From a virus (lineage: Duplodnaviria; Caudoviricetes): a stretch of 64,000 bases of DNA. The stretch covers positions 105,615 to 169,614 of IMG/VR virus record IMGVR_UViG_3300028591_003737; one strand, written 5' to 3'. Position 1 is the first letter of the stretch. The number at the start of each line of letters is the position of its first letter. The translations under genes were made by a program, and so were the position numbers. Under the pieces are notes generated by a model. That model saw only the letters and a program-made list of their open reading frames with translations, was not told the origin of the DNA and did no database searches. Positions 41,793 through 63,415 of this stretch are shown here, piece after piece.

Positions 41793-42116
41793 TCAATACT
41801 TAGGATAAATATATAATATCATATTGTTTGTTTTACAAGGTTTTTCAACATCTAAATTTTCTTCAATCCATTTAGCAACTGGTTTATATATCCATCTATG
41901 TTGTTTCTGTACTGATAAGAAAATATATTTCTTTGATTTACCTACGTTAATATATTCTTCATAATTATCAAATTTTACTAATCCAGAATATTTTTCAATA
42001 ATATATTTTTTAATCTCTGAAATAAATTTATTGTTTATTTCATCAATATCATCTAATACTTCTGTTTCTTTATTTAAGTGAAGTTTTTCTAATATGTAAT
42101 TATTGATATTAATCAT
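41793..42116 (-). CDS. Leader-bearing small protein (EKLHLNK family)
   Basis: MININNYILEKLHLNKE. Confidence 0.75.
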   Translation of the reverse strand: MININNYILEKLHLNKETEVLDDIDEINNKFISEIKKYIIEKYSGLVKFDNYEEYINVGKSKKYIFLSVQKQHRWIYKPVAKWIEENLDVEKPCKTNNMILYIYPKY

Positions 42117-42118
42117 TT

Positions 42119-42547
42119 TTATTTATATAATTTTTTATTACCATCAATATATTCATAATATTCATCATATAGTTCTCTACCTGATAAATGCATACTATCA
42201 TTACCAAAAGTTATAGTTACTCTACTTCTATTAACTAACCATTCAATAATTCTTCTATGTTTTTTAATTAATAAAAATATATCACCATCTCTTCTATTAA
42301 TATCAGACATACTAAAACTATATTGGAAATAATTATTTAAAATATTAATAATTTCTTCATAATCTATTCTACCCCAATATATTTGTTTTTGAAATGTAGA
42401 ATTTTCTTTATATATTTTATATATCATAATACATAAATATGTAGCAATGATAATATCTCTAACTTTATCAATATTATCAATTTCAGATGATTCAAAATCT
42501 TTATTTAAATGTAATTTTTCAGATATATAATTATTAATGTTAATCAT
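42119..42547 (-). CDS. Leader-bearing small protein (EKLHLNK family)
   Basis: MININNYISEKLHLNKD. Confidence 0.75.
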   Translation of the reverse strand: MININNYISEKLHLNKDFESSEIDNIDKVRDIIIATYLCIMIYKIYKENSTFQKQIYWGRIDYEEIINILNNYFQYSFSMSDINRRDGDIFLLIKKHRRIIEWLVNRSRVTITFGNDSMHLSGRELYDEYYEYIDGNKKLYK

Positions 42548-43035
42548 TTTTCTTCTAATTCTTCTTTAATTTTTTTAATATCTGCTTTTGTATTTATTTT
42601 GGTATTTCCTGGATCATATCTAAATGATGAAAATAAAAAAAGTTTATTACGATTAATATAATCATCTATCATTTTAATTGCTTTATCTACTTTCATTAAT
42701 GCAGACCACTCACCATTCTTTTTATAAAATGCAAATGTATTTTGTATATGAGGACTTGAATGAGTATGATCTTCAAATGTATATTCTATCTCTCTGACTA
42801 CTTTACCAGTTCTATAACTCTTTAAAATTATTGTTTCTTCATTTATTTCTTCTATAATACCAACAAATAATTTAACATATTTATATGAAGTATTTGTTTT
42901 AGGAGAACTACATATCCCTAACACTTTATCTCCAACATGTATATTATATATATCACAATGTATAGAAGAAGTATTAGTATCTATATTCTTATCTAAATGT
43001 AATTTTTCAAATATGTAGTTATATATCTGTTTCAT
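42544..43035 (-). CDS. Leader-bearing small protein (EKLHLNK family)
   Basis: MKQIYNYIFEKLHLDKN. Confidence 0.75.
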   Translation of the reverse strand: MKQIYNYIFEKLHLDKNIDTNTSSIHCDIYNIHVGDKVLGICSSPKTNTSYKYVKLFVGIIEEINEETIILKSYRTGKVVREIEYTFEDHTHSSPHIQNTFAFYKKNGEWSALMKVDKAIKMIDDYINRNKLFLFSSFRYDPGNTKINTKADIKKIKEELEEK

Positions 43036-43508
43036 TATTTCTTTTCAAATACTCTTAATAAAGGTTCAAGACCATTTTGTGCTGCTATATCAATAAGGCA
43101 TTCATCTTTTACATATATAAAATGATCTGCACCACCATCATCTACCCAAGTATATTCTGATTTAGCTCCTGAAATAGCAATATTTTTAAATTTTTTTAAT
43201 ATCTCATTATTTTCAGAATAAAATTCTTTTTGTTTCTTATTTACTTTCCAATCATCTAAATTATAATCTTGTGCATATACATTAAAATCAATTACATCAT
43301 TATCTTCAATCCATTTAAGTATTATTGAACTCATCTCATCTTTTCTAGTATTATCAGTAATTGTAAAATTCTTATAATGATTATCATATTTATCAAATGA
43401 TAATATACAAATAATTTTACCAAGAAGTTTTCCTTTTAATACATCACCACTTTCTAAATCTTTATTAAGATGGAGTTTTTCTAATATATATGTACTTAAA
43501 TTAATCAT
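43035..43508 (-). CDS. Leader-bearing small protein (EKLHLNK family)
   Basis: MINLSTYILEKLHLNKD. Confidence 0.75.
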   Translation of the reverse strand: MINLSTYILEKLHLNKDLESGDVLKGKLLGKIICILSFDKYDNHYKNFTITDNTRKDEMSSIILKWIEDNDVIDFNVYAQDYNLDDWKVNKKQKEFYSENNEILKKFKNIAISGAKSEYTWVDDGGADHFIYVKDECLIDIAAQNGLEPLLRVFEKK

Positions 43509-44572
43509 TTATTATCTGTTATTATTTTATTTATTCTTTCTTGGAATTCTTTAGATATTACAAATCCTCTTTTCTTTTCTTTATAAAATAACTTAATAAA
43601 TAATTCTAATAATTGTTTATATACATTACCCTTTTGACGAATTGCTTTTTGTAATTCAGGAATAACTCTATCAACTTGTACAGCATATGTTTTAGAAGTA
43701 TTAAGTCTAATTTTTGCACCAAGATTAATTAATTTATTAAATATCTTAGTATCACTCATCATATAAAAGAATGCTCTTTGTAATTTCTCTAACCAACTAA
43801 CATCAACATTCCATTCTGGATCTTTTGCATTTTCAAGATAATCTACAAAAGTATTATATATCTTCTCATAAGTATCAGCATTCTTTTCTCTTTCTTCTTC
43901 ATTTCCTTTATCTCTATCTTTCATACTCTGTCTATAAGTAGGATCAACTATTTTATATTCAGCAATCTTTTCACCAACTGGAAAGAAGAATACAATACCT
44001 TCAATATAATCATCAGCAGCAGATATAAGTTTATCTGGGAAATTCTTATAAGTATCAAACATTGAATGAACCCAATTAATAAATTCTTTCTTTTCTGGAA
44101 CAATAGCACTTGAAAGAATATTTACGATACTGTCAATCTGTTCATCAGTAAGTTTACCCTCCCAAAGAGTAGGCATTACATCAGTACCAAGTTCATCAGC
44201 TATTTCTTTAATCTTATCAGCAGACTGAATAAAATTATCATTCTTATCAATAATAGCAGTAAGAAGAAGTAAATTATCAATTACTTCAAATGTCAAAAAC
44301 TTATAGTTTTTAAATACATCTACATGTTTTTCAACATGAGCGATAGCATCATTAACTGGTTTTGAGAATAATCTTGTATAGTCATCAATCTCTGGACCAA
44401 CATGAGTTTCATCACCAGAACGACCATGATATTCTAATGAATCTGATTGTTCATTATAAAGAACTTGAAATGGTTTACCATCTACTTTAAGATTGATTTT
44501 AATACCATCAAGTTCAAGAAGTTTTTCACAAACTTCTGGTTTCTTTTTATATATATCAATAAAATGTTCCAT
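43505..44572 (-). CDS. ATP-dependent RNA ligase-like (covalent nucleotidyltransferase) protein
   Basis: Motif I KVDG, Ia GRSG, III TFEV, PTLWEG, IV EGIVF, V YKIV. Confidence 0.65.
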   Translation of the reverse strand: MEHFIDIYKKKPEVCEKLLELDGIKINLKVDGKPFQVLYNEQSDSLEYHGRSGDETHVGPEIDDYTRLFSKPVNDAIAHVEKHVDVFKNYKFLTFEVIDNLLLLTAIIDKNDNFIQSADKIKEIADELGTDVMPTLWEGKLTDEQIDSIVNILSSAIVPEKKEFINWVHSMFDTYKNFPDKLISAADDYIEGIVFFFPVGEKIAEYKIVDPTYRQSMKDRDKGNEEEREKNADTYEKIYNTFVDYLENAKDPEWNVDVSWLEKLQRAFFYMMSDTKIFNKLINLGAKIRLNTSKTYAVQVDRVIPELQKAIRQKGNVYKQLLELFIKLFYKEKKRGFVISKEFQERINKIITDNK

Positions 44573-44586
44573 AATATATTATTTAA

Positions 44587-45489
44587 TTAATCTTTTACTT
44601 TACCATAACTTCCATCATCTTTATAATAAGTACATGGAAAATCTTCTTTTTCAACAGGAACTTCACATTTAGGATCATTTATATATTCCATATAAAATCT
44701 CTTTTCAGTTCTTTCAAGAACTTCTTTACCCCAAGGCCATAAATCTGAATGAATTGCTTTCCAAAGTCCTTCTACAGTATTAAATATCTTAGGATCAATA
44801 TCATTAGTATCAAATATAAATCTCATTACATTCATAGGATCATTAGAAACAAGTTCTTTAAATTCTTGCTTAGCAGTACTTACATATTGACCTTTCTTTC
44901 CAACATGATTAGCAAGATATTTGAATACACCTTCTTGATTAAATGTATATCTCCATTTTTTCTTTACATCTCCATTGTCAAAATATTCATTCTGTGCATC
45001 TTTTACAGGAATACTTGATACAATATGTTGAATAAGATATACTTTAGGAGCAGCTTTATATTTACTTTCTCCTTTCTTAAAATCTGGACTTGAGAATCTC
45101 CATTTAGCCCAATCAATATTATCTGTAAACATAAAATCAACTTGAGCAACTCCTTTCTTTCCTTCTTTATCCCATTCATATCCAATAGATACAATCTTAG
45201 GAGTAGTAAAAGGATTTAATTCTGATTCAGGAAATACTTCCTTAATCATATTCATAAGTTCTTCTCTATTATTTAAATCAATAGCGATATCAATATCACC
45301 ATTAAAATCATCATCTTTCTTTTTACCAATACTTCCAAGAGGAGCCATTTTTACACTACTTTTCCAAGCATGTACTTTATCTTCTATTTCTTTATATATA
45401 AGAGGAGTTATATATGCAGGAATTGGTTGAGAAGAAACTGCATGTCCACTTTCTAACATTAAATTAATATATTCAATTATTGATTTCAT
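44587..45489 (-). CDS. Pol-beta-superfamily nucleotidyltransferase with CTS-like leader
   Basis: LGSIGKK..GDIDIAI and QVDFMF (GS, DxD, third Asp); starts MKSIIEYINLMLE. Confidence 0.75.
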   Translation of the reverse strand: MKSIIEYINLMLESGHAVSSQPIPAYITPLIYKEIEDKVHAWKSSVKMAPLGSIGKKKDDDFNGDIDIAIDLNNREELMNMIKEVFPESELNPFTTPKIVSIGYEWDKEGKKGVAQVDFMFTDNIDWAKWRFSSPDFKKGESKYKAAPKVYLIQHIVSSIPVKDAQNEYFDNGDVKKKWRYTFNQEGVFKYLANHVGKKGQYVSTAKQEFKELVSNDPMNVMRFIFDTNDIDPKIFNTVEGLWKAIHSDLWPWGKEVLERTEKRFYMEYINDPKCEVPVEKEDFPCTYYKDDGSYGKVKD

Positions 45490-45491
45490 AA

Positions 45492-45806
45492 TTATTTATC
45501 TTCATCTTTATTTTGTAATGTTGATAATGAAACAAAATGTTTACAAAATTTAGTTAAATTTTTAAAATCTCTTTGCATTAATATTTTAAATCCTAAAATC
45601 ATTAATGCTCCTCCTAATTGTATAGGATGCCAGATTTTTTTAGCTTCTATACCTTCTTTTTCTAAAAGATTACGTAATTTAATTTCATCAATTTCTAATT
45701 CTTGAAGAAAATTAGAAAATATTTTATCTATATCTTTATTTTCTAAACTTTCAGAAATTAATAAATTATTTACTGGTTTATTTATAAATTCTTCTAATGA
45801 TTTCAT
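45492..45806 (-). CDS. Leader-bearing hypothetical protein
   Basis: MKSLEEFINK..LLISE. Confidence 0.65.
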   Translation of the reverse strand: MKSLEEFINKPVNNLLISESLENKDIDKIFSNFLQELEIDEIKLRNLLEKEGIEAKKIWHPIQLGGALMILGFKILMQRDFKNLTKFCKHFVSLSTLQNKDEDK

Positions 45807-46723
45807 TTTATATATTCTATAGCTTTATTTAATAATTGTGTAAATTCATCAACTAATGATTTATCAGTTTTCATTTTAAACTGCCAATCTTCAAGATATG
45901 ATTTCTTAATATTTTCCATCATTTCTTTACTTCTTCTTGGATATTTATCAGATACAAGATAATCAAGAAGAGATTCAAAAGAATTACAATCACTTTGTTC
46001 TGATTCTTTACCAAGAATTAAATCAAGTATCTTTCTTACATTAGTAGTAACTTTTTCTTTTGAAACTGTTTTAGGTGAAGCAAGTGGTTTTGTTTTACCT
46101 TCAAATGATTTTTTAACTATCAATAATCCTTCTGCTTGTGATAATTGATATTTATAAAATTCTTTAACTTGTCCAGAATATTTACCATTAAATTCATCAG
46201 TAAATTTAACTTCTTCTTTTCCTTCAACTGGAGTATTTGATACAACAGCCATTAAAAGATTAGACTGATACATTCCTTTATATTTTGATTCTCCTTTAGT
46301 AAAATCTGGTGAATTATAAGCAAATTTAGCAAATTCAACATCATTTACAAACATAAAATCAACTTGAACAATCTTTTCTGTTCCATCTTCATCATATTTA
46401 TATCCAATATTAAATACATGAAGACCTTCATTTATATTTCCAATTTCACTTCCAAATTGTTTCTTTACAAAATCAATAACTTTATCTTTATCTTCCCAAG
46501 GTAATTCAAGAGCAATATCAATATCTCCTGAAGTTTGTTCTTTAGATTTCTTACCTGTTGAACCAAGTGCTGAAGCTTTACATTTAAATTCTTTAGTAAT
46601 AGAATTAATAATTTCATCTGCTACTACTTTAGCAAGATCACCACGAATAGGTGATGCATTTTCAACGGAATGTCCACCTTCAACTATTAAAGATTCTTTT
46701 ATATATTCAATTATTGATTTCAT
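45803..46723 (-). CDS. Pol-beta-superfamily nucleotidyltransferase (paralog) with CTS-like leader
   Basis: LGSTGKK..GDIDIAL and QVDFMF; SPDF.KGESKYK is shared with 44587..45489; starts MKSIIEYIKE. Confidence 0.75.
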   Translation of the reverse strand: MKSIIEYIKESLIVEGGHSVENASPIRGDLAKVVADEIINSITKEFKCKASALGSTGKKSKEQTSGDIDIALELPWEDKDKVIDFVKKQFGSEIGNINEGLHVFNIGYKYDEDGTEKIVQVDFMFVNDVEFAKFAYNSPDFTKGESKYKGMYQSNLLMAVVSNTPVEGKEEVKFTDEFNGKYSGQVKEFYKYQLSQAEGLLIVKKSFEGKTKPLASPKTVSKEKVTTNVRKILDLILGKESEQSDCNSFESLLDYLVSDKYPRRSKEMMENIKKSYLEDWQFKMKTDKSLVDEFTQLLNKAIEYIK

Positions 46724-46724
46724 A

Positions 46725-47540
46725 TTAATAAATTTCTTTATTTACTTCTTCTTCTATTCTATTAATAAAATCTGAACATCTTTTTATAAATTTATCATCT
46801 CCATCATAATATTGTTTATTCTCTTCTAATCCTTTTTTTGCTCCTTTTATAAAAGAACTTAAAACATTTCCAAAGAATTCTACTCCCCATTCACCAATCC
46901 AAGATTTACCATAATTTTCAATATCTTGTAATCTTGTTTTTGATTCATTAACTATATATTCATTAATTGATTTCATATTATTATTTTGTATATATTTCAA
47001 TATATTGCTTTCTTTAATTGATGATATTTGTTTTTTAAATTCAGAGAATAAATCATGAGCTTCTTTAGGCATTAATTCTTTAAATTTTTCTTCATCATCA
47101 TTTTTTATTGCTTCTCTAACATCTGTTGCTGAACCATATCTTTTAGTAATATAAAATTCTGGTTCATCTATTCCAAGTTCATCTTTAATAGATTTACCTT
47201 TCATTAATTTTTTATATCCATCAATTCTATCTTCACCAGCAAGCCAAAGAACTGGTTCATATCCATTTTCAATACATACTCTACATATTGTCATTGGCAT
47301 TGGTCTTCTTATCCAATTAATTCCTTCAATATATTCATATTTATCTACAAGACGTTCAAGTTCTTTCTTTGTCAATTCATCATCAAATGGTTTTCTTGAA
47401 TCAAACTTTTCATTATGAATATACATAATATAAACTGGAAGACCATTCTTTTTGAATGCATCTTCACAAGCTTTCAAGTGACCATTATGAAATGGTTGAA
47501 AACGACCTGGGAATATATTTACTTTTTTAAGTTCTGACAT
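46725..47540 (-). CDS. HIGH-motif cytidylyl/adenylyltransferase (NadM/NMNAT-like) with C-terminal leader-bearing module
   Basis: PGRFQPFHNGH, AGEDR, SATDVREAI; internal MKSINEYIVNE at 46976. Confidence 0.75.
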   Translation of the reverse strand: MSELKKVNIFPGRFQPFHNGHLKACEDAFKKNGLPVYIMYIHNEKFDSRKPFDDELTKKELERLVDKYEYIEGINWIRRPMPMTICRVCIENGYEPVLWLAGEDRIDGYKKLMKGKSIKDELGIDEPEFYITKRYGSATDVREAIKNDDEEKFKELMPKEAHDLFSEFKKQISSIKESNILKYIQNNNMKSINEYIVNESKTRLQDIENYGKSWIGEWGVEFFGNVLSSFIKGAKKGLEENKQYYDGDDKFIKRCSDFINRIEEEVNKEIY

Positions 47541-47549
47541 AATATTTAT

Positions 47550-49445
47550 TTATTTTTTTACAAAACCAATTGTTCCATGTCCATTCCAATCTGATGGACC
47601 ACAACCAGCAATATCAAATTTAAATACTTGTTTATTTAATGGATATAATTTCAAAATAATATCTAATTTTTTATCTTCTTTGTTCCATTTTATTTCAGTA
47701 TCTATTTGATTAGATTCTAAATAATTATTTAATAAAATAGATAATATATTAGAAGTATCATTTTCATTATTTATTTCATTTGAATATAAATTATTTAATT
47801 CATCTACACATCTAATAATTAATGGGTACATAATTTTTGAATAATTTTCTTGATAAACTTTATTCTTTCCTCCACTTTTAATATAATAATCAGTATTTTT
47901 TATATCCTTTTCAGAACTTAATCCATCCCAAGATATAAAATTCCAATCCATATTACCTTTTATTTTTGTTTTATTACTTATACCAATTAAAATATCTTTT
48001 ATCTCATCTTTATTTTTATAATTATCTATTAAATATAATGCTCTATCTTTTTCTGGATAATCCCAATTATCTTTTTTTAATTGTAAAATATTACATAATT
48101 TTTTAAAATTCTCATCATCTTCAAATAATGACCAAGATAATTTCCATATATTTCTATTTTGATCAGTTTTTGCTAAACCGCTTCCATCTTTTTTTAATTT
48201 ATAAAATATTTTCATTCTTTCAAGAAATTCATCAATTTCTTGTTTAGTAATATTAAATGAATCAGCTATTTGATAAATATTATTTAAAATATCTTTATCT
48301 TTATTATCAATTTCTTTAAAAATATTTATCATTATAGAAGAAATACTTGGTCTATGTCCATTTTTAGAATCTTTACTTTTAATAGAAATACCTATTCCAT
48401 TAAAATATAAATCATTTAAAAATTCACTACCATTATCTGGCCAATATAATGAATTTCTATCTTCTTTTTTACAATATTTATATAATAACAATCCTGCTAA
48501 TACTTCTCCAAATCCTACTTCTAATGAATTTCTATCTTGTGGAGATAATGTATTATAAATATTATTATACTTTTCTGTTAAATTAATTGTATGTTTTATT
48601 TCTAAATTATTTTTTGATAATTTAGATAAAATATCTTTATCAATTATATAATTACTAATATTAGAATTTAAAATTTCTTTTGATATATATGATATAAAAT
48701 CTGAATATATACCATCTTCTATAGTTATATTTTTCTTTGAGTTATTTGTAATTAATGATAATATTCTTTCTATATCTTTATTATTTTGTAAATTAAATCC
48801 ATCTTCAATCGAATTTGAAGTTAATCCTAATGCTTTTGGTTGTACTGATTCTGTTTTTATAAGAATTCTTTCTCCTTTACCATTTGAATCTGTATTACAA
48901 ATATAAAATTCTTTATCTTTCCAAGTAACTTTTACACTAAGGAAACTTCTAGAAGATTTTTCTCTATTTATTTTTGGTTCATCTACTTTAAAATCATCCA
49001 TTCCAACAATATTACCTCCCAAAATTTTTTCAATATTTTCTTTAAAAGTTGATGAATGACCAAATTCTCCTCTTATATATTCTTCAGGATATTTTCCAGA
49101 ATTCCAACCTTTAACTATATTTGGCCCAGTTTTTATATAAAAAGATACATTTCTTTTTCCTAAAATATTTAAATATGTTTTTAATGAATTAGCATTTGAA
49201 GTACAAATAACTTTTGAACCCTTTTTATAAATTGGTTCATTATTATCATTAAATCCTTCTATAGGAAATTTAGTATTATAAATAGAATATTTTTGATCTT
49301 TAGAAGGAAATAAATAATCATATAAAGAAATATTATATTTTGACATAATACTTCTCATAGCATCATATTTATTTTTTGATGTTTCTTCTATGTCTTCAAA
49401 AATATTTATAATATTTTCATTAATATATTCTATAATACTTTTCAT
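47550..49445 (-). CDS. Large leader-bearing protein with putative PD-(D/E)XK nuclease-like core
   Basis: Likely start is MKSIIEYINE (49445); FGEVLAG..WPDNGSEFLNDLYFNGIGISIKSK. Confidence 0.5.
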   Translation of the reverse strand: MKSIIEYINENIINIFEDIEETSKNKYDAMRSIMSKYNISLYDYLFPSKDQKYSIYNTKFPIEGFNDNNEPIYKKGSKVICTSNANSLKTYLNILGKRNVSFYIKTGPNIVKGWNSGKYPEEYIRGEFGHSSTFKENIEKILGGNIVGMDDFKVDEPKINREKSSRSFLSVKVTWKDKEFYICNTDSNGKGERILIKTESVQPKALGLTSNSIEDGFNLQNNKDIERILSLITNNSKKNITIEDGIYSDFISYISKEILNSNISNYIIDKDILSKLSKNNLEIKHTINLTEKYNNIYNTLSPQDRNSLEVGFGEVLAGLLLYKYCKKEDRNSLYWPDNGSEFLNDLYFNGIGISIKSKDSKNGHRPSISSIMINIFKEIDNKDKDILNNIYQIADSFNITKQEIDEFLERMKIFYKLKKDGSGLAKTDQNRNIWKLSWSLFEDDENFKKLCNILQLKKDNWDYPEKDRALYLIDNYKNKDEIKDILIGISNKTKIKGNMDWNFISWDGLSSEKDIKNTDYYIKSGGKNKVYQENYSKIMYPLIIRCVDELNNLYSNEINNENDTSNILSILLNNYLESNQIDTEIKWNKEDKKLDIILKLYPLNKQVFKFDIAGCGPSDWNGHGTIGFVKK

Positions 49446-49449
49446 AATT

Positions 49450-49920
49450 CTATACTTTTTTATCTTCTTTAACTGGAATTGGTGGAATTGGTACAATATT
49501 CAATGCAGGAACATTTACTTGTACACCCCTTATGTCTTCCATATTCTTTGGTGGATTTGATTCTCCAAAATTTTCTTTATAATATTTATCCAAATCAATA
49601 CTATCTTTTGGAATATATGGAATTGGAACAATTGTCAAAAGAGGAACTTTAAGTTGTGTTGTCTTTCCATTAGCATCAGTAAATTTTATTTTACCGTCAG
49701 ATTCAACAATATTTGGATGATCAAACTTAGGATATTCTTTAATTAAATCTTCAAGAAAATCTTTAGTAAATACTCCAGGTAATTGTTCTAATTTTTGAAC
49801 ATGATTATTCATTAATTCATCAACAGTCATATCTGCCGCATCAACTACTCTTACGGTGTTTGGTAATATAAACTTACCAATTTTTTCTCTAAGCTTATTA
49901 AACATATTTAATTTATTCAT
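49450..49920 (-). CDS. Hypothetical Pro-rich protein
   Basis: 156 aa with two VP.L.IVPIP repeats. Confidence 0.65.
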   Translation of the reverse strand: MNKLNMFNKLREKIGKFILPNTVRVVDAADMTVDELMNNHVQKLEQLPGVFTKDFLEDLIKEYPKFDHPNIVESDGKIKFTDANGKTTQLKVPLLTIVPIPYIPKDSIDLDKYYKENFGESNPPKNMEDIRGVQVNVPALNIVPIPPIPVKEDKKV

Positions 49921-49939
49921 TATCTTTTAAAATTTTATA

Positions 49940-50581: not shown

Positions 50582-50607
50582 TTTTATATAATTAATATGA
50601 TTTAATA

Positions 50608-50620
50608 TATATAAAAATAA
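50608..50620 (-). promoter_or_regulatory. Late-type motif TTATTTTTATATA
   Basis: Heads the 50581-to-41793 operon. Confidence 0.6.
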
Positions 50621-50625
50621 AATCT

Positions 50626-50970: not shown

Positions 50971-51128
50971 ATCAATTCAACTTTAGTAATTTTAACTTCA
51001 TCAGTAAGTCCATGTTTATATATACCTACTTCAACTGCATCATATTCATCATAGACATTATCCACATAGAATTCACCTTTTGATGAATAACTATCACCAT
51101 ATAAATAAGAAACTTTATACGTTGCCAT
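50961..51128 (-). CDS. Small hypothetical protein (55 aa, not in ORF track)
   Basis: MATYKVSYLYGDSYSSKGEFYVDNVYDEYDAVEVGIYKHGLTDEVKITKVELICE*; early-type promoter at 51164-51193. Confidence 0.6.
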   Translation of the reverse strand: MATYKVSYLYGDSYSSKGEFYVDNVYDEYDAVEVGIYKHGLTDEVKITKVELICE

Positions 51129-51189: not shown

Positions 51190-51831
51190 TCAACCTCTTT
51201 TAGTATACCATGATGGTTTTTTCTTTAATTTATTACAATCTTTAAACATTAAAGTTTTTTTACCAATTCTTTTATAATCCCAAGATTCTAAATCTCTATT
51301 AAAATTCTTACAACCCCAGAACATATAATCACAATCACAACCATTTTCTCTGAATTTCCAATTAGATATATCTTCATTAAATAATTCACAATTCATGAAC
51401 ATACTTTTTGTACTTCTACAATTATCTAATTCCCAATATCTTAAACCATTTCCTTCAAAGTTTTTACAATTCAAGAACATACCATACATGTCTTGAACAT
51501 TATGTACATCCCATTTAGATAAATCACAATCAAAGTTTACACAATCTCTAAACATTTCATCCATATCTTTTACATTAGATACATCCCAATCAGATATATT
51601 AATATTATATATCTTATCTCCGAATGGTTTAAATAAATCACTCATATAATCTATTTTAGATACATCAATATCATTTAAATCTGCATCTCTTCCTCTTTCA
51701 TTAATAAGTCTTTCAAGAAGTTCACTTAATTCTTTTTTATTTTCTGGAAAGAATTGAGGTTCTACTTCTTTTTTAACTTCTGAATGATTAAACTTAAGTT
51801 TTTCTATTATGTAGTTATCTATATGTTTCAT
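51190..51831 (-). CDS. DUF285/BspA-like repeat protein with CTS-like leader
   Basis: Repeats ISDWDVSNVKDMDEMF / LSKWDVHNVQDMYGMF / FNEDISNW; starts MKHIDNYIIEKLKFN. Confidence 0.8.
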   Translation of the reverse strand: MKHIDNYIIEKLKFNHSEVKKEVEPQFFPENKKELSELLERLINERGRDADLNDIDVSKIDYMSDLFKPFGDKIYNINISDWDVSNVKDMDEMFRDCVNFDCDLSKWDVHNVQDMYGMFLNCKNFEGNGLRYWELDNCRSTKSMFMNCELFNEDISNWKFRENGCDCDYMFWGCKNFNRDLESWDYKRIGKKTLMFKDCNKLKKKPSWYTKRG

Positions 51832-51834: not shown

Positions 51835-52134
51835 TTATTGTTTAATATATTTTACTATAAATTCAGCAATTTGATCTTTTATTTTATCTTTCTTATCATC
51901 TTGTAAAAATTCATCATCAGATGGTTGATATGCAAGATATTCTTTTGGATATTTCTCTGCTAAACAATCTGATAATTTCTTTAATCTACCTTCAACATCA
52001 CAAATTCCATCAAGTAATTCACTATAATTTTCTTTAGTAAAGTTTTTACTTGACTTAAACATATTTATTGTTATTTCACACCAAAGAGGATGTTTCTTTA
52101 ATTCCTCAGTAATATATTCATTAATCTTTATCAT
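51835..52134 (-). CDS. Leader-bearing small protein
   Basis: MIKINEYITEEL. Confidence 0.7.
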   Translation of the reverse strand: MIKINEYITEELKKHPLWCEITINMFKSSKNFTKENYSELLDGICDVEGRLKKLSDCLAEKYPKEYLAYQPSDDEFLQDDKKDKIKDQIAEFIVKYIKQ

Positions 52135-52136: not shown

Positions 52137-52595
52137 TTAAATTACTCCTGAAATTATAAAACTTTTTGTATCATCAGTTATTGAAAATCCAATAATTCTA
52201 TCTGATAAACAATATCTTTCAACATACTTAGATAAATTTCCATTATCTAAAATTACTTCTGTACTAGTTTGTGAAGCAACTATATCATTTATTTTATCTC
52301 TATCTTGTTTTGAATATTTTCCATAACTTGGAATATACTTTTCAATAAAATCTTTACTTTCTTCAGATAATTTTCCTTTATTTGGATAATCAGTAGTTCC
52401 TCTATAAAGATATTTAAAATCTTCAATTTTAGAAACATGCATATCTTTAAAAAGTTTTTTAATATTTTCACTTTCTTTTAACTCTTCCCAATCAAATAAT
52501 TCAGATATAGTTTTTAAAAAATCATCCATATCTGATACTTTAGTATTCTTATCTAAATGAAGTTTTTCTATTATATATGTATTAAGTTTTATCAT
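52137..52595 (-). CDS. Leader-bearing small protein (EKLHLNK family)
   Basis: MIKLNTYIIEKLHLDKN. Confidence 0.75.
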   Translation of the reverse strand: MIKLNTYIIEKLHLDKNTKVSDMDDFLKTISELFDWEELKESENIKKLFKDMHVSKIEDFKYLYRGTTDYPNKGKLSEESKDFIEKYIPSYGKYSKQDRDKINDIVASQTSTEVILDNGNLSKYVERYCLSDRIIGFSITDDTKSFIISGVI

Positions 52596-52610: not shown

Positions 52611-53006
52611 TTATTTAATATTTTCTTTTAAAAAATTATAAAAACTATTAAAGAGATTATTCATATTATCTCTATCATCAAGATCATTATATTCTATTTT
52701 ATTTTTTGATGACCATCCATTTTCATCTGGCCAATCTATAGTATCATTATAAATTAAAGATAATTCTAAATGATGCATATCAGAATATCTAAATATATGA
52801 ATAAATTTTTCGGTATCTGATAAATAAATATTTAAAGCACTTTTATGATCTTTTCCTTTTAAATATCTAGATATAACTTTTTTATTATCAGATAATTCTA
52901 AATCACTTAATTTAGAAATAGATAATAAATTTATATTAGATTCTTTTGCTTCACTGTTTTTATTAAGTTGAAGTTTCTCAATTATATATGTATTAAGTTC
53001 TTTCAT
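52611..53006 (-). CDS. Leader-bearing small protein (EKLHLNK family)
   Basis: MKELNTYIIEKLQLNKN. Confidence 0.75.
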   Translation of the reverse strand: MKELNTYIIEKLQLNKNSEAKESNINLLSISKLSDLELSDNKKVISRYLKGKDHKSALNIYLSDTEKFIHIFRYSDMHHLELSLIYNDTIDWPDENGWSSKNKIEYNDLDDRDNMNNLFNSFYNFLKENIK

Positions 53007-53704
53007 TATGCTCCTAATTCTTTTTTTAATTCATCAATAAATTGTTGACTCCATTTAAAATTTTTATCATTTACCCTATAATTATAATATGTTCCTCCAA
53101 TTATAAATATTATTTCACATTTAGCACTTTTATTCTTATAAGTTACTTTAAAAGGTAAAGCAATTTTTCCATTTCTTTCTTTCATTATTTCAAGAGCTTC
53201 TTTTGAATAACTATCATAATCAGTATAATTAAATTCTATTCTATACTTTTGATTCTTAATTATTACATCTAATAAAGTTTCAATAACATCATAATATTCT
53301 GCTGCTAATTTAGTAGGTAAATCATGTAATTCTTCTGGTTTAGCTAATTCATAAGCATTTATAAAATCTTGAGGTTTAGCATTATATTGATCTATTCCTC
53401 TATCAACAAAATATGAACCAAAATTACCTGGAAGAGAAATTAGTGTATTTTTATAAATATATGGTACAGAATTAGTCATTATCATTATTGTAACCCATTT
53501 TTTAATACAACTATTAGCACTTAAACATTTATTAGAAAGATTTTTACATCTTTCTCTATCATAACCAACACTATATCTTGATGTAGAATTAAAAATATCT
53601 TTTACCTTTTCTTCATCTTCTTTAGTGATAGTATATGTATTGATATCTTTAATATCTTTATTAAGTTTAAGTTTCTCTACTATATAATTATCTAATTCTA
53701 TCAT
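53006..53704 (-). CDS. Leader-bearing protein (EKLHLNK family)
   Basis: Likely start is MIELDNYIVEKLKLNKD (53704). Confidence 0.75.
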   Translation of the reverse strand: MIELDNYIVEKLKLNKDIKDINTYTITKEDEEKVKDIFNSTSRYSVGYDRERCKNLSNKCLSANSCIKKWVTIMIMTNSVPYIYKNTLISLPGNFGSYFVDRGIDQYNAKPQDFINAYELAKPEELHDLPTKLAAEYYDVIETLLDVIIKNQKYRIEFNYTDYDSYSKEALEIMKERNGKIALPFKVTYKNKSAKCEIIFIIGGTYYNYRVNDKNFKWSQQFIDELKKELGA

Positions 53705-53705
53705 A

Positions 53706-53897
53706 TTATCCTTTATGTGCAAAATATGCTTTTAATGCATTTTCAGCATCTGTTTTTGTATGATATTTAGCTTTCCAATATCCTCGTTTAGGTGTATTAG
53801 TTCCTTTACCAGCATGTCCTTTTATTCTCCAATAATCACCAACTTTTACAATGACATCTTCAAGTTCTTCTGTTAAATATTGTTTTAATGTTTTCAT
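53706..53897 (-). CDS. Leader-bearing small basic protein
   Basis: MKTLKQYLTEEL; late motif at 53899-53911 immediately upstream. Confidence 0.7.
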   Translation of the reverse strand: MKTLKQYLTEELEDVIVKVGDYWRIKGHAGKGTNTPKRGYWKAKYHTKTDAENALKAYFAHKG

Positions 53898-55546: not shown

Positions 55547-55567
55547 ATTTTTATATTAAAGTATTTT

Positions 55568-57424: not shown

Positions 57425-57490
57425 ACTATATAAAAATAAAAAATCATAGCGATATGCTATGATTTTCATATATTATATTTAGATTTTAAA

Positions 57491-58333
57491 TTAATTATTA
57501 AATCTTGCTCTATCAAGTAATGTACTGATTATCTGTACTGAATGATTTAATGCTGCAATAATTTCAGCTTTAGGTGGATGTACATTTCCATCTTTATAAT
57601 GAAGTGTTAAGAAACCAAGTGGACCATTAATACCTTCTAGAACAATAAATGCACCGAAGTTAGCATCTACAACTCTAAGTTTTGCAGCAAAATATCTATC
57701 TTGTTTTTCTACTTCATCAGTTGAACCAATCCATGTTCCTTTTTTATAATTAAGGGCTACAAAAGGTAATTTAGCTAAATTGAAATTCTTAAATTCGTCT
57801 TGAGCGAAATTTACATTATTACTAATCTGTTCATATGCCATATCTCCATAAATAAATGGGAATCCGGATGCATTATTTGTACCATTATGTAATTCGACAA
57901 TAGCTGCACGATCAGCATCAAGTTTTATAAGTAAACTTTTTAATTCACTATCAATAAGAGCACTGTTATCAAGTCTCTTTATTGACATTTTAACATGTTC
58001 CTTTCTTACTTCTTCAGCTTTACGTGTCATTGCTTCTTCATATTCACCAATTCGTTGTTCTTTTGTTGAAGCTCTATCTTCACGTTGTACACTTTTAGAT
58101 AACTGATAAAAACCAGCTATCGAACAGAATAATGCAAATACTACCCATAAACCATCCATTTTAAATGAACCAAAAAATTCTACTGGGTTAGTAATACAAG
58201 TTGGATTAGTAAGGATAAATATTGAAATAAAAACAAGAAGAACCATCCCAATATTCTTCATAAAATAACCAAAGCCCTTAGTTGTTTTCTTTTCTAAGTT
58301 CTCCTTAAATTTATCAATATCATTAATATTCAT
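57491..58333 (-). CDS. Probable holin-like membrane protein (TM helices plus GAF-like domain)
   Basis: Two hydrophobic helices, then ADRAAIVELHNG..YE..GFLTLHY; adjacent to the amidase; late motif at 58405-58417. Confidence 0.5.
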   Translation of the reverse strand: MNINDIDKFKENLEKKTTKGFGYFMKNIGMVLLVFISIFILTNPTCITNPVEFFGSFKMDGLWVVFALFCSIAGFYQLSKSVQREDRASTKEQRIGEYEEAMTRKAEEVRKEHVKMSIKRLDNSALIDSELKSLLIKLDADRAAIVELHNGTNNASGFPFIYGDMAYEQISNNVNFAQDEFKNFNLAKLPFVALNYKKGTWIGSTDEVEKQDRYFAAKLRVVDANFGAFIVLEGINGPLGFLTLHYKDGNVHPPKAEIIAALNHSVQIISTLLDRARFNN

Positions 58334-58436
58334 TTTATTTAATTTAAGCTAAATTTTGCATAAAACTTTTCACATAATATACAATGAATTTATCTTAAAT
58401 TTTATAATTAAAAATAATACAAAAACAAACCTATTA

Positions 58437-58470
58437 AAAAAGATGGAAGCAAGAGAACCTTACTTCCATC
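58437..58470 (-). terminator. Intrinsic terminator
   Basis: agatggaag / cttccatct hairpin with an A-run. Confidence 0.7.
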
Positions 58471-58497
58471 TAATAATAAAATATATTAATAGAAAAA

Positions 58498-59589
58498 TTA
58501 GTTATAATAAACTTCTTCTGAACTTTGTATTTTTGTTGTATAAACTAAGAACTTATTTGATTTTTCATCAAAGTCTAATTTAGTACAAACATAAGAATTA
58601 TCATCTATAATAGGAACAGATTTATTAATTTCAATAGTAGGTCCACCAACAGGATCAATCATATAAATTTCTCCTTCATTTTTATAAATCTGTTGTATTG
58701 GATATTGTGTACAAAGTTTATAAACACTATTCCATTGATGTTCTTCTGAATATTCATTGATTAATCTGAGATAATTACAAACATCATCTCTTGTTTGAAG
58801 ATTATAAATTATATCACTAAATTCAATATTTGTATGAAGAATATTCCAAATCTTTTCGAATAATTCATCATAAGTACCATTATTAGTGATTATATAATCC
58901 CATCTATCTTCTTCATCAAGATCATGTTCTGCAATATTATCAAGTTGTTGTACATCATCTCTTTGAATAGAAATTGTTATACCATTATTCTTATGGATAT
59001 AATTTATTTCATGATTAAATCTTATATCTGTAAGAATTACATATTTAAGATTATGATTTTTCTGTTGTTCATGTTTAACAAGATTACTTACAATATTTAC
59101 AAATACATTCTTATTCAAATCTTGTTGAAGAACATATGTACCTACATAAACAAGAATTTCACGAAGACTCATCCAATATTTATCTTCTGATGCTTTATAT
59201 ACAGCAATATTATTATAATATTCCTCTGATGTTACTATATAATTATCAAGAGGCTTTACTTCTGTATACTTAAAATCTTTATTGATACATACCCATGCAT
59301 TTGCTTTATTTTGATAAAATCTATTTACTGGAATACCAAAAATATTTGAGCAAATAATTTTAAGCTGATCAGCGAATGCTACACAATAAACAGGATTATT
59401 TTCTGTTTTTATTTCATTAGGATTATATGTTGCAGAAATTGTTGGAGAAGTATAAACTGATTTATAATATTGTTTACATTCTTCTAAATTATTCCAATGA
59501 AAATTTAATATTGTTTTAATCATTTTTGCTACAGTGTCCTTTCCACTACCAGCAAAACCATTAAGACCGATATATAATAAATTTGACAT
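58498..59589 (-). CDS. Deoxynucleoside monophosphate kinase (T4 gp1-like)
   Basis: IGLNGFAGSGKDT, AFADQLK, LREILVYVGT, TDIRFNHE. Confidence 0.85.
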   Translation of the reverse strand: MSNLLYIGLNGFAGSGKDTVAKMIKTILNFHWNNLEECKQYYKSVYTSPTISATYNPNEIKTENNPVYCVAFADQLKIICSNIFGIPVNRFYQNKANAWVCINKDFKYTEVKPLDNYIVTSEEYYNNIAVYKASEDKYWMSLREILVYVGTYVLQQDLNKNVFVNIVSNLVKHEQQKNHNLKYVILTDIRFNHEINYIHKNNGITISIQRDDVQQLDNIAEHDLDEEDRWDYIITNNGTYDELFEKIWNILHTNIEFSDIIYNLQTRDDVCNYLRLINEYSEEHQWNSVYKLCTQYPIQQIYKNEGEIYMIDPVGGPTIEINKSVPIIDDNSYVCTKLDFDEKSNKFLVYTTKIQSSEEVYYN

Positions 59590-59662
59590 TTCTATTAATA
59601 TACATTATTTTATTGTATAATATAGAAATGTCAATTAAATATATTCAGTTAATTATTAATTC

Positions 59663-61774
59663 TTACTTTTCTTTATTTACTTTAGAAGGATCTTTAGCAG
59701 ATAATTTATGTCTACTATATTCATTAGCAGTTGGCATTGTACTAGCCCACATAGTACCAAATTGATTTGCAGTATAAAATATATTATTACCATATCCAGC
59801 AGGAGGAGCAAGTTTATATTGTTCACCAGTAGTTTTATTTCGCATAGATGCTTCAACAATTTCTAATGGAATACCAGAAGCATTACTTATTAAATCACTA
59901 TATAATGTTCTACCAAGAGGAACTCCAAGACCAGCACGACCCATTGTATACATCTTACCAATTTCCATCATATCTCTAGATTTACCATGTTTAAGATTAA
60001 TAGTAACTTTTAATCCTGTTGGGAAATCATCAAGACCAAGTGGACCATATTGCTGTATAGTTGAACCATCAATAATTAAATTACCCATACACATTATAGG
60101 ATTTCTAGGATTACCAATAGTTAAGTGCCAAAGACCAACAGGTTCACCACTTAAAATAGAATCTGTTGCATAAAGAGCAGGACGGCCTAATTTATTTTTA
60201 ATCATACTCTTTAACATATTACCAGCCCCTACTGAATGTAATTTATCATAAATATCTTGCATTAATTTTTGTGGATCTGAAACAGCATTACCAATACTAT
60301 TTAATAATGTAGAACCAGCCTTTTCTAAATTAGACCATAAACCAGCAAAGAAATTTCCTAAATCCATTTCTCCAGAACATAACATTTGAAATGTTCCAGA
60401 TAATTTATCCCATGCACCATCAATCATTGCATTAGCTGTTTGCCATCCTTTAGTATTAGCAGGAGCACCTTTCCACCAAACAGCACCACCCCAGAAATTA
60501 CCTTTACGATATGTAACTTGTTGAATATTATTTAATAAATCAAGAAATGCTGTTCTAGGATTAATATTTTCATATGCTCTTAATTCATAATCAAAAGTTA
60601 ATGAGAAAGTTTGTTCAAAAGTTAATTTACCTTCATATAAATGAGTATCTCTAACAGTTCCTTTTGGTTCATAAATTCTATTATTATCATATCTTTCCCA
60701 TAATACTCTAACATTTTCTGAATCTCCACCAGATACACTATTTGCACCAGTTAAAAATGATTGATCAAATACCATACCAAGTATTTTATTCTCATTACCC
60801 CAACCAGCCATACCAGTTTTATTAGTATCTCCTATTCTATAATTAGGATTTGCTAAGTTAATAGCTGCTCCTAAAATACCTCTATGACTATCATCTTCTG
60901 TAGAACTAGCATCACTGAAGTGACCAGTTTTAGGTTCAAAACTATCTTTATAATTATATTTTAATATATCTTCTAATTTATTATTATCATCCATCCAAGT
61001 AACTAAACGACCAATATCTCCAGAAATATTAGCACCACCTTTTTCTTGCTGATTAACTGACCAAATATCATCACCAATAGGAACAGGAAATCTTCTTAAT
61101 GTAAGTAAACGGTTATTAGATATTTTACCAAGATTTTTACAATACATAAAATCAGCATATTTAAATATACCTCTACCTAATTTACCTTCATCAGATAATT
61201 TAACTAATGTTTTAATTGAACAATCACTTAAATCATCAGGATAATCTGTTTTTTTAATAGATTTTCCATTATATTCATATAAAATATTATCAGGAGTATT
61301 AATCACTGGAGTATTACTGTCCATACCAATAATATTAATACCATAAAGAGGATTAAACATTGATGGTATTATTGGCATAGTATAATATTCTCCACCAGCA
61401 AGATCTTTACCATTTTTATCTTTTCCTACAATACCGTATTCACCTAAAATATATGCAGGTTTTTTATATATAAATTGATAATTTTTAGTAGAATTATCTA
61501 ATACTTCTTGAGATAATTTAAATGGATTTTCATAAATAAATTCTTTATTTACAGTAAGATTAGAATAATTTTGATAATCAGCAGTTTGTTGAAGTTGTGT
61601 TATATTACTATTATCATTGATAAATGATAATTTACCAATGTTTTCTTTATAAAAAGAACTATAAGGATTCTTTTCTATGTGTTCTTTAGTAAGTTTTTCT
61701 CTATTTTCTTTAGTATCTTTTGCTGAATTCCAACCTTCTTTAAAAGCACCACCTATGCTACTAAATATTCCCAT
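59663..61774 (-). CDS. Probable baseplate/tail-tube-initiator-like structural protein
   Basis: Gly-rich; TFSLTFDYEL..WHLTIGNP..FPTGLKVTINLK tube-fold-like strands; late motif at 61794-61806. Confidence 0.45.
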   Translation of the reverse strand: MGIFSSIGGAFKEGWNSAKDTKENREKLTKEHIEKNPYSSFYKENIGKLSFINDNSNITQLQQTADYQNYSNLTVNKEFIYENPFKLSQEVLDNSTKNYQFIYKKPAYILGEYGIVGKDKNGKDLAGGEYYTMPIIPSMFNPLYGINIIGMDSNTPVINTPDNILYEYNGKSIKKTDYPDDLSDCSIKTLVKLSDEGKLGRGIFKYADFMYCKNLGKISNNRLLTLRRFPVPIGDDIWSVNQQEKGGANISGDIGRLVTWMDDNNKLEDILKYNYKDSFEPKTGHFSDASSTEDDSHRGILGAAINLANPNYRIGDTNKTGMAGWGNENKILGMVFDQSFLTGANSVSGGDSENVRVLWERYDNNRIYEPKGTVRDTHLYEGKLTFEQTFSLTFDYELRAYENINPRTAFLDLLNNIQQVTYRKGNFWGGAVWWKGAPANTKGWQTANAMIDGAWDKLSGTFQMLCSGEMDLGNFFAGLWSNLEKAGSTLLNSIGNAVSDPQKLMQDIYDKLHSVGAGNMLKSMIKNKLGRPALYATDSILSGEPVGLWHLTIGNPRNPIMCMGNLIIDGSTIQQYGPLGLDDFPTGLKVTINLKHGKSRDMMEIGKMYTMGRAGLGVPLGRTLYSDLISNASGIPLEIVEASMRNKTTGEQYKLAPPAGYGNNIFYTANQFGTMWASTMPTANEYSRHKLSAKDPSKVNKEK

Positions 61775-61804
61775 TTATAAAAAAGATATATTATATATAA
61801 AAAT

Positions 61805-61833
61805 AAAAAAGACTGATAAAATATCAGTCTTTT
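61805..61833 (-). terminator. Intrinsic terminator
   Basis: aaaagactgata / tatcagtctttt. Confidence 0.75.
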
Positions 61834-61853
61834 AATTATATATTTGATATATT

Positions 61854-62375
61854 TTATGAAAGCATCATAAGATGTTCAGCATGACGACGTTTGATATGAC
61901 CTGGAGCAGAAATTCTAGACTCTTTAACACCTGCTACTGTATAATTAAAATCATCTTCATTCATTATTCCATTCTTAACTCTACATTTAAGAAGACGCTG
62001 ATAAAATGTACTTTTCTTTACTCCACCTTCACCACAATTATAAATAAGAGAATAAAGACCATCAATAAATCCCTGAGAAAATTCATATTCATAAGGAAGA
62101 GCTTCAATAAGACGTTTTACACTTCCTTTAAATTTATTGATATCTTTTCTAAAATATTCATCTGCCTGAGCTCGTGTAATAGTCATTCCTTCATAAACAT
62201 CAGAACCATGATGACCATAACCAATAGAATAACCATTTGCATCATGATAAGCAGTCAACTGACAAGTTTCATATTTCTTAATGAATTCAATACCTTCAGA
62301 AGAAATACTATATTCTTTACTAAAAGAAATAAAACTTATAGTAAGAAAAGAAATAATAGTAATAATCTTTTTCAT
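61854..62375 (-). CDS. GH24 phage lysozyme with N-terminal signal peptide
   Basis: GIEFIKKYE..LTAYHDANGYSIGYGH..YNCG..RRHAE; MKKIITIISFLTISFISFS signal-like N-terminus; early-type promoter at 62402-62429. Confidence 0.85.
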   Translation of the reverse strand: MKKIITIISFLTISFISFSKEYSISSEGIEFIKKYETCQLTAYHDANGYSIGYGHHGSDVYEGMTITRAQADEYFRKDINKFKGSVKRLIEALPYEYEFSQGFIDGLYSLIYNCGEGGVKKSTFYQRLLKCRVKNGIMNEDDFNYTVAGVKESRISAPGHIKRRHAEHLMMLS

Positions 62376-62457
62376 AATATTTTTATTTTGTTTCACATAT
62401 TAATATAGTATAAAAAAGAAAAAATTCAAAGATTTTATTTCTTTGAATTTCAATTTA

Positions 62458-62907
62458 TTAATATACTCCTTTAAAATAATATATATTTAATTTACCAGGT
62501 TTTTTAACTAATAAATTATTTGAAGGATATTTTTGTCCTAAACAACTTTCATCTGAATATATTTCTATACCATTTTTATTATATAATTCTTTAAATCTTT
62601 TTTTATCTTGTTTATATAATTCTATAGCATCTTCATCTTCAAGAGGACTTAATGATACTCCATCTGGTAAATCAGCATGTTCTGCACAAAATGTTGAAAG
62701 ATCTTTTTTAATTTTAAATGTTTTAATCCATGTTTCTAATACATCAGCAATATCATAATTATCTTTAAAATCCAATATATATAACATTAAATCAACTAAT
62801 TTATTTTCATGAAGTTTAAATTTAGTTGTTAAACTATCTCTATCTTGAATTTTAATATCTTTATCTAATTTAAGTTTTTCTAATATATATTCATTAAAGT
62901 TTTTCAT
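62458..62907 (-). CDS. Leader-bearing small protein (EKLHLNK family)
   Basis: MKNFNEYILEKLKLDKD. Confidence 0.75.
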   Translation of the reverse strand: MKNFNEYILEKLKLDKDIKIQDRDSLTTKFKLHENKLVDLMLYILDFKDNYDIADVLETWIKTFKIKKDLSTFCAEHADLPDGVSLSPLEDEDAIELYKQDKKRFKELYNKNGIEIYSDESCLGQKYPSNNLLVKKPGKLNIYYFKGVY

Positions 62908-63415
62908 ATAAATCTAATAAATCTTTTACTTTATCTGGATTATTTTTGATTGTTACTGAATCAAATGAATCATTTTTATCAAAATATTGATAAATTTTAT
63001 TTTTTTGATGATAAAAATCTAATGCTATATCTTTTATAAAGTTAATACCTTCTTCTTTATTTAAATATATTATTTTTGCTTTCCATTTATCTTGATCAGT
63101 TCCAACACTTCCTAAAAATTCATAATAACCATTAGAGTTAATAAACATATCTCTTTCATAAGAATATTTATCTATATCATATTTATCATTTGGTGTATAT
63201 GTAAATCTTATTTCTCCATTATCTTGAGTATCATAGTAATAATATACAATAGATCTAACTGGATCATTTATCTCAAGTTCATCTATTGTTCTACCATTAT
63301 AAGAAAATATACCAATTCTAATAATTGGTTCACCTTTTTTAAAATCTACTGGAGATGTATTGATATTCTTATTTAAATGAAGTTTTTCAATAATATATGA
63401 ATCTAATTGTTTCAT
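62894..63415 (-). CDS. Leader-bearing small protein (EKLHLNK family)
   Basis: MKQLDSYIIEKLHLNKN. Confidence 0.75.
   Translation of the reverse strand: MKQLDSYIIEKLHLNKNINTSPVDFKKGEPIIRIGIFSYNGRTIDELEINDPVRSIVYYYYDTQDNGEIRFTYTPNDKYDIDKYSYERDMFINSNGYYEFLGSVGTDQDKWKAKIIYLNKEEGINFIKDIALDFYHQKNKIYQYFDKNDSFDSVTIKNNPDKVKDLLDLYEKL

Follow-up and report, generated by a model that had tools for sequence, protein, structure and literature searches.

Three arrays of genes with a shared N-terminal head

We analysed a window of 64,000 nucleotides, the final 64 kb of a single viral contig of 169,614 bp (IMG/VR record IMGVR_UViG_3300028591_003737; GC content 27%), in which three arrays of small genes share a nearly constant N-terminal head joined to otherwise different bodies. 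The contig is from an uncultured T4-type rumen phage: a gp23-like major capsid protein and an S77 prohead protease place it in the T4 superfamily, and sheath and tube genes are also encoded in the window. By capsid protein its closest named phages, Sphingomonas phage PAU, Tenacibaculum phages pT24 and PTm1 and the Prevotella Lak megaphages, are just 34–38% identical, and a megablast search of the region against cultured phages returned no match. Near-identical DNA is present in sheep and bovine gut metagenomes, and contigs identical to portions of the window were found in RNA libraries, which is no proof of transcription.

An initial annotation, made from the DNA letters alone, had described ten cassette-like genes with a constant head of about 17 residues in these arrays (A, B and C; Table 1). 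We verified both the coordinates and the motif: all ten open reading frames (ORFs) lie on the minus strand and start M-x-x-[LI]-x-x-Y-I-x-E-K-L-[HKQ]-[LF]-[ND]-[KH]. A search of the whole genome in six frames with the pattern [YF][ILV]xEKL[HKQ][LF][ND][KH] gave 20 matches, every one of them (20/20) with a methionine exactly 6 residues upstream, and 0 matches in each of 30 composition-preserving shuffles. Ten further EKL members lie outside the window, at genome positions 18265–24085, 28204 and 56877. The family with the extended tag numbers about 21 genes in this genome and not ten. Array B, reported as four genes, does hold four EKL genes, but an ORF that had gone uncounted (B2) stands among them with a variant head (EEL in place of EKL; YITEELKKH) and has a homologue of 60% amino acid identity at the matching position in the related genome G001.

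A shorter head, M-K-x-[LI]-x-x-Y-I-x-E, is found on about 35 of 221 crude gene calls. Its carriers include two nucleotidyltransferase-like genes, a haloacid dehalogenase (HAD) phosphatase, a nucleoside diphosphate kinase (NDK), a gene resembling nicotinamide mononucleotide (NMN) adenylyltransferase and a 631-amino-acid protein. At 46725–47540 of the window, an NMN adenylyltransferase-type (cytidylyltransferase-like) gene forms an in-frame fusion with a headed cassette and has an internal MKSINEYIVNESKTR at about residue 187; the same cassette is a separate small gene in relatives L041 and L008. Decapitated variants of the head also occur, at genome positions 85784–86074, outside the window, and at 3248–3598 of L005: one gene starts MLHLNKN, the second motif without the first, and another starts MKTLLEKLKLDKN, the head minus five residues.

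The arrays are tightly packed, with overlapping stops and starts, and lie in variable regions adjoining head and baseplate genes. Between 41000 and 61000 of the window, many starts of headed genes overlap the preceding stop (ATGA). Upstream of the heads we found neither a conserved motif nor a Shine–Dalgarno sequence. Together, the ATGA overlaps and the missing Shine–Dalgarno-like motifs fit a Bacteroidota host.

Table 1 Genes of the three arrays, their flanks and the head-morphogenesis genes (positions in the window; G001, G003, L037 and L048 are relatives)
Gene	Length (aa)	Position	Strand	Head	Remarks
A1	107	41793..42116	-	MININNYILEKLHLNK	Orphan body; without homologue in G001
A2	142	42119..42547	-	MININNYISEKLHLNK	53% aa homologue in G001, in other order within the array
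A3	163	42544..43035	-	MKQIYNYIFEKLHLDK	Sole array-A cassette common to several relatives
A4	157	43035..43508	-	MINLSTYILEKLHLNK	Orphan body
B1	213	51190..51831	-	MKHIDNYIIEKLKFNH	DUF285, BspA-like leucine-rich repeat; PF03382 2.3e-41
B2	99	51835..52134	-	MIKINEYITEELKKH	Variant head; inside array B
B3	152	52137..52595	-	MIKLNTYIIEKLHLDK	Orphan body
B4	131	52611..53006	-	MKELNTYIIEKLQLNK	Orphan body
B5	232	53006..53704	-	MIELDNYIVEKLKLNK	Family of ~22 clusters, without known domain
C1	149	62458..62907	-	MKNFNEYILEKLKLDK	88.6% aa homologue in G001 and L037, differently headed
C2	173	62894..63415	-	MKQLDSYIIEKLHLNK	In G001 and L037 two other cassettes occupy its place
Conserved array-A flank	355	43505..44572	-		Comparison anchor; 82-93% aa identity in closer relatives, 56-62% in distant loci
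Short-headed gene	63	53706..53897	-	MKTLKQYLTEEL	Directly upstream of array B; homologues in G003 and L048
Major capsid protein, gp23 family		37100..38827	-		Pfam PF07068 1.2e-29; propeptide ...YAAIHEIHE/S
Prohead protease S77, gp21-like, fused to scaffold-like tail		38944..40689	-		Pfam PF03420 4.7e-9

The head is conserved as a peptide

The 19-mer that the initial annotation had noted in the genes at 52595 and 53006 is exact and occurs at exactly two sites, 52570 and 52981 (0 expected). Over the 51 nt of the heads, mean DNA identity is 75%, and the longest exact run is 11 nt in the median and 30 nt at most. Where two heads have the same residue, they also have the same codon in 0.694 of pairs, compared with 0.647 ± 0.026 expected from genome codon usage. 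Because same-codon use lies near this expectation, the similarity of the head DNA follows mostly from residue conservation in a genome of 27% GC; the similarity over the 5′ ~50 bp that had been reported at the DNA level is real, but it does not go beyond what codon bias predicts. Recent gene conversion was considered as the main cause of the similarity between heads and was rejected, as the synonymous-site test showed no excess of DNA conservation. The codons for Leu12 and Leu14 are divided between CTT and TTA, and this division, together with the codon-level test, indicates that selection acts on the peptide. Among 21 homologues of B5 that are 24–38% identical, only six columns are invariant; M1, Y7 and E10 of the head account for half of these, and I8 and K11 show at least 90% conservation.

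We also asked whether the conserved 5′ segment might act as nucleic acid, either as an AT-rich, unstructured translation start for a host that does not use Shine–Dalgarno sequences or as a regulatory site. Such a role would suit the extreme AT richness of the heads and the lack of an upstream motif and of a Shine–Dalgarno sequence, but we consider it highly improbable: synonymous sites vary freely, same-codon use is at the codon-bias expectation, and conservation follows residues Y7, I8, E10, K11 and L12 in distant homologues that use different codons for them.

Most bodies are unrelated

When the 21 bodies of this genome (G000) were compared all against all by BLASTP and hhalign, the related pairs were two, the DUF285 pair of B1 and g28204, a paralogue outside the window, and, marginally, C2 and g21177; g18265 and g19386 also form a weak pair. 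With the heads included, the family profiles of A3 and C2 aligned at 94.5% probability, and at 0.3% after the heads had been trimmed. The earlier statement that the bodies are unrelated beyond the head holds for the most part, the exceptions being B1–g28204 and the marginal C2–g21177.

B1 scored 140.8 bits for DUF285 (PF03382; cut-off 25) and is the sole array gene with such a match. For nine of the 11 array ORFs there was no credible match in Pfam (B1 matches, and C2 was outside the scan), and for the ten EKL genes there was none in PHROGs apart from B1. The B5 family profile had no match in Pfam or the PDB, tblastn of C2 and B5 against phages gave no match, and a search for homologues of A4 returned its own 98% cluster alone. 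In the AlphaFold 2 model of A3 (predicted local distance difference test (pLDDT) score 79.9), a separate helix of low confidence formed by the head (residues 2–12) is followed by a linker and then by a confident beta-rich body. This body has at best a weak likeness to a Tudor/PWWP-like barrel (best VIA Z 5.2, root-mean-square deviation 3.3, 84 residues aligned); Foldseek with the A3 model found nothing in the PDB or BFVD at E ≤ 0.001, and VIA gave no match above background. The model of C2 was too poor for a fold search (pLDDT 54).

It is decidedly improbable, in our judgement, that the head is merely the leftover N terminus of one old paralogous family, without special function, whose bodies have diverged past recognition. 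The A3 and C2 models are similar in the order of their secondary structure, and the weak pairs C2–g21177 and g18265–g19386 point the same way. However, B1 consists of DUF285 repeats and A3 of a beta-rich domain with helices, the trimmed A3 and C2 profiles are unrelated, the head residues are invariant across B5-family bodies that share 25–40% identity, and relatives carry the same body with different heads and the same head with different bodies. A single diverged fold, which the initial annotation had named as a finding that would speak against it, is not supported; most bodies are without a structure.

The head resembles the capsid targeting sequence of T4

In T4, the leader of the internal proteins (IPs) directs their packaging and is cut after a glutamate; once ejected, the proteins block host defences (PMC9026906, PMC3012670, PMC12373910). 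The first ten residues are enough for packaging; positions 4 and 7 matter for targeting, whereas processing by gp21 involves positions 8 and 10 (PMC9026906). The Ip proteins of T-even phages have the packaging leader alone in common, and Ip1–3 each inhibit a different GmrSD nuclease (PMC12373910, PMC3012670). In T4 itself (read from NC_000866), IPII and IPIII start MKTYQEFIAE and IPI starts MKTFKEF...ITE; T4 gp61.1, a hypothetical protein of 54 amino acids (NC_000866 18966–19130), has a similar start, MKTFKEFIKE. In 34 heads of our phage, the most conserved positions are 4 (L or I in 30/34), 7 (Y in 30/34), 8 (I in 29/34) and 10 (E in 33/34), and these coincide with the functional positions of the T4 capsid targeting sequence (CTS). 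The two systems thus share an N-terminal leader, M-K-x-hydrophobic-x-x-aromatic-I-x-E, common to unrelated small proteins, as well as a gp21-type protease, a gp23-type capsid and loci that differ between related phages. They differ in number, as T4 has 3 IPs and at least 10 have been reported for the T-even phages together, compared with about 21 extended and about 35 tagged proteins in total here. Our phage also has a second conserved motif, KLxLxK, straight after the predicted cut, its cassettes stand in tandem arrays with overlapping stops and starts, and many of its short-tagged proteins are enzymes.

The head-morphogenesis genes carry similar motifs. The protease gene continues into a long, acidic tail with coiled coil and repeats, and the fusion is presumed to supply both the processing enzyme and the docking core. 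A protease profile built from 11 relatives matched the structure of T4 gp21 (5jbl; E 0.0012), with SRGxGS aligned. The tail holds 6–9 tandem 12-residue repeats, EEFAPEVQNW[VI][CT] (window 39400–39700), which are present in all nine relatives with varying copy number and whose unit W-[VI]-x-E-E-F resembles Y-I-x-E-K-L of the head. It contains 9 aromatic-[ILV]-x-E sites, compared with a genome-wide density of 0.29 per 100 amino acids, and the propeptide end of the capsid protein, IHEIHE/S, is kept in 9/9 relatives in an N-terminal alignment. The scaffold sites and the capsid propeptide fit a protease that cuts after aromatic/aliphatic-[IV]-x-E, a cut that we infer from these sequences. A predicted complex between the protease domain and the A3 head (residues 1–36) scored below the mark; run without controls, it is evidence neither way.

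On the basis of this analogy, it is reasonably likely that the tagged proteins are cargo packaged in the head and trimmed by the protease, in the manner of T4. Each gene would then encode a two-part N-terminal tag and an otherwise unrelated small protein. Residues 1–10 (M-K/I-x-L/I-x-x-Y-I-x-E) would act like the T4 CTS and dock the protein on the scaffold core of the prohead, the gp21-type protease of the phage would then remove this first part after Glu10, and the body, retained in the head, would reach the host together with the DNA. The second part, K11-L12-x-L14-x-K16, is under equally strong selection at the protein level, and may extend the docking helix or remain as the mature N terminus. 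The S77 protease, the scaffold repeats, the capsid propeptide and the agreement with the T4 CTS positions make plausible the cleavage after Glu and the retained KLxLxK signal that the initial annotation had suggested.

Alternatively, the head could be a docking or oligomerization helix that is never cleaved and binds some other partner, such as a phage hub protein, a chaperone or a host factor, instead of loading the capsid. The short amphipathic helix on a linker in the A3 model, the presence of the head on many enzymes that are not obviously virion cargo, and the lineage-specific extensions (EKLHLNK, EKLKLNK, EKLNLSK and EKFRLSK), which are expected if tag and partner co-evolve, are all compatible with this. 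We nevertheless regard it as unlikely, because the best-conserved residues are those important for targeting and cleavage in T4 (PMC9026906), aromatic-[IV]-x-E recurs in the scaffold and ends the capsid propeptide, and the arrays flank head-morphogenesis genes.

The extension is found across the clade

Relatives carry their own forms of the extension: EKLHLNK on 18–21 genes of G001, EKLHL[KN]KG in G002, EKLKLNKD in L039, L040 and L043, EKLK[IV]S in L002, EKLNLS[TK] on 11 genes of G003 (DUF285 in 11/11) and EKFE[IL]N in G005. G004 has 26 short heads, the extension being present in none. The megaphage G006 (the contig of L008; 410 kb, CheckV completeness estimate 97%) has 73 matches to the head pattern, compared with 1 in the control. 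It also contains several arrays, each of about ten DUF285 paralogues that start MKKLNQFITEKFRLSKDNL (for example, L051–L053). Clustering of 65 EK[LF]-headed genes from relatives gave DUF285 (23), four two-member families (8) and 34 singletons. Judged by these sequences, the extension, EK[LF]x[LIV]x[KN], is a feature of the clade, not private to this phage, and is ancestrally tied to arrays of DUF285 paralogues. It looks like the native leader of these paralogues that has spread to other bodies and drifts in step within each lineage. Extension type did not covary with the scaffold repeats, which are near-uniform in all relatives. PAU gp103 is a long DUF285 protein without a head, and PAU has no matches to the head pattern. 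Searches of the literature found neither the motif strings nor Lak or Jug phage papers that mention such a leader. B1 and its paralogue are clear members of the DUF285 (PF03382) families, of which relatives carry arrays of about ten paralogues; what sets the present case apart is the phage tag at the N terminus and its spread to unrelated bodies.

Since DUF285/BspA-like proteins are the ancestral and commonest body (23/65), we considered whether the head anchors swappable surface modules (adhesin-like DUF285 repeats and others) on the virion exterior, as the anchors of receptor-binding proteins do. DUF285 repeats occur in many large phages, one record is annotated as an outer surface protein, and the arrays adjoin a baseplate-like gene. 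This explanation seems improbable to us: known fibre anchors are far longer than 17 residues, the majority of bodies are small globular orphans with nothing to suggest trimeric fibres, and the short head is also on cytoplasmic enzymes.

The KLxLxK segment invites a further, unlikely reading, in which it is not part of the loading signal but a designed new N terminus, exposed by the cut after Glu10 on a flexible linker as a second address after ejection. N-terminal lysine is a secondary destabilizing residue in the bacterial Leu/N-degron pathway. An exposed Lys-Leu-x-Leu-x-Lys could be an N-degron that times a short life in the host, or a signal for copy number or ejection order. If so, the short-headed enzymes, which would expose small residues, would be the stable class and the injected proteome would be sorted into two fates, and the same modular, exon-like unit of 17 codons would also drive cassette exchange.

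Arrays turn over through crossovers in the head codons

To follow the arrays among relatives, we compared the window with G001 (74.6 kb), whose backbone is 77–96% identical to this genome. G001 has 21 headed genes, of which about six have homologues here: A2 (53%), A3 (47%), B1, B2, C1 (88.6%) and g23137 (90.6%). At array A there are 4 cassettes here, 8 in G001 and 3, 2+, 1 or 0 in other contigs, and the A2-like and A3-like genes are in reversed order in G001. At array C, G001 and the independent contig L037 carry another cassette and a g23137 homologue where C2 sits here; the moved cassette is 90.6% identical to g23137, which in this genome lies in a different array. The C1 homologue in G001 and L037 has the same body (88.6%) under another head, MNNLSQYILEKLHLNK, which is common to another G001 gene, and the switch between head and body lies near +45 to +60, making this gene a head/body chimaera. 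The arrays are therefore not invariant but differ strongly among species-level relatives: array A ranges from 0 to 8 cassettes, and one cassette has moved between arrays.

The clearest junctions came from L039, L040 and L043, which are mutually 93–98% identical and hold one, two and three cassettes, respectively. L039 differs from L043 and L040 by whole-cassette insertions or deletions (indels) of 1.1 kb and 0.64 kb. In its flank and up to nt 29 of the head, L039 equals the first L043 cassette, and from +39 onwards it equals the third; within the head, the alignments of these two L043 cassettes to L039 have 33 nt in common. Judged by informative sites, the crossover falls between +30 and +38 of the ATG, within the codons GAA AAA CTT AAA (E-K-L-K), and the comparison of L039 with L040 gives the same placement. 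On these alignments, the indels in L039, L040 and L043 were made by head-to-head recombination. Our comparison across relatives for gain, loss or swap of bodies with breakpoints in the head supports the suggestion of the initial annotation that the heads are recombination handles: arrays differ among relatives, one cassette has been relocated, and two indels have their crossover in the E-K-L codons, at +30 to +38. All cassettes open with about 50 nt of similar sequence, which would allow unequal homologous crossovers between heads to delete, insert, move and re-head whole cassettes.

Several smaller rearrangements were seen nearby. A short-headed gene of 104 amino acids (MKSLEEFINK; window 45492–45806), between two nucleotidyltransferase-like paralogues, is missing in G001 and in a bovine strain about 98–99% identical, a single-cassette indel between two headed genes. 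A nucleotidyltransferase-like protein of 306 amino acids has a head-like end, ...NKAIEYIK (window 45803–45830), and at about 35783 of G001 this ending is doubled (NKAIEYIKNKSIEYIK) right before the MKTIVEYI of the next gene; such head-like endings may be scars of head-to-head recombination. Between array A and a head gene of 219 amino acids lies a segment of about 190 bp (window 41591–41778) with a 60-amino-acid ORF (MAYTKQKRF...). In L039 and L043 this segment is inverted relative to its flanks, and clean flanking inverted repeats were not found.

Discussion

Several points weigh against the account in which the tags load cargo into the head and their codons recombine. Packaging, cleavage, ejection and an anti-host role of the bodies are what we infer for an uncultured phage. 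No sequence match to T4 was found, IPI, IPII and IPIII included, and the N termini of these IPs score −1 to −2 bits on the position matrix of the heads; the likeness is therefore one of pattern and not demonstrable homology, so that the head can be said to work like a CTS but not to be a member of that family. The bodies are near-neutral or acidic, not basic, and candidate cleavage motifs inside the tagged bodies are not depleted (20 seen, 21.8 expected). About 16% of genes are short-headed, far more than the handful of CTS proteins in T4, which would demand a large volume of cargo. With respect to recombination, arrays A and B are colinear in strains from other studies that are about 98–99% identical; shuffling is thus not rapid, and turnover at the strain level is slow. 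Finally, in a packed array only recombinants with junctions at gene boundaries are viable, and the observed junctions are biased accordingly.

Two known systems help to place these results. The ejection (inner-body) proteins of giant phages such as phiKZ and SPN3US are likewise a large and diverse head cargo trimmed at x-x-E by a gp21-related protease, but their propeptides are long and heterogeneous, unlike the uniform tag of 10–17 residues, and their genes are not cassettes with a uniform head (PMC5694885, PMC7411985, PMC10052503). Modular shuffling by promoter early stem-loop (PeSL) repeats in the hyperplastic regions of T4-type phages is similar in that short conserved flanks recombine and genes are inserted, deleted or replaced between core blocks (PMC2839356, PMC4122927). 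PeSL repeats are intergenic promoter–stem-loop elements, whereas the repeat here is coding and forms the first 17 codons of each gene, and as a result every crossover would also re-head the downstream body in frame.

If the account of head-packaged, protease-trimmed cargo is true, this clade of Lak megaphage relatives from the rumen and gut injects dozens of different proteins rather than a handful, and the injected set is renewed by in-frame recombination at the coding tag. Candidates for injected effectors in uncultured Bacteroidota phages, likely anti-defence proteins among them, could then be listed by a simple sequence rule, and the tag would offer a natural blueprint for delivering proteins by way of phage heads. 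With the crossover placed in the E-K-L codons, metagenomes allow a direct test of the evolutionary part, and the system would be a clear case of a targeting peptide that doubles as a recombination site.

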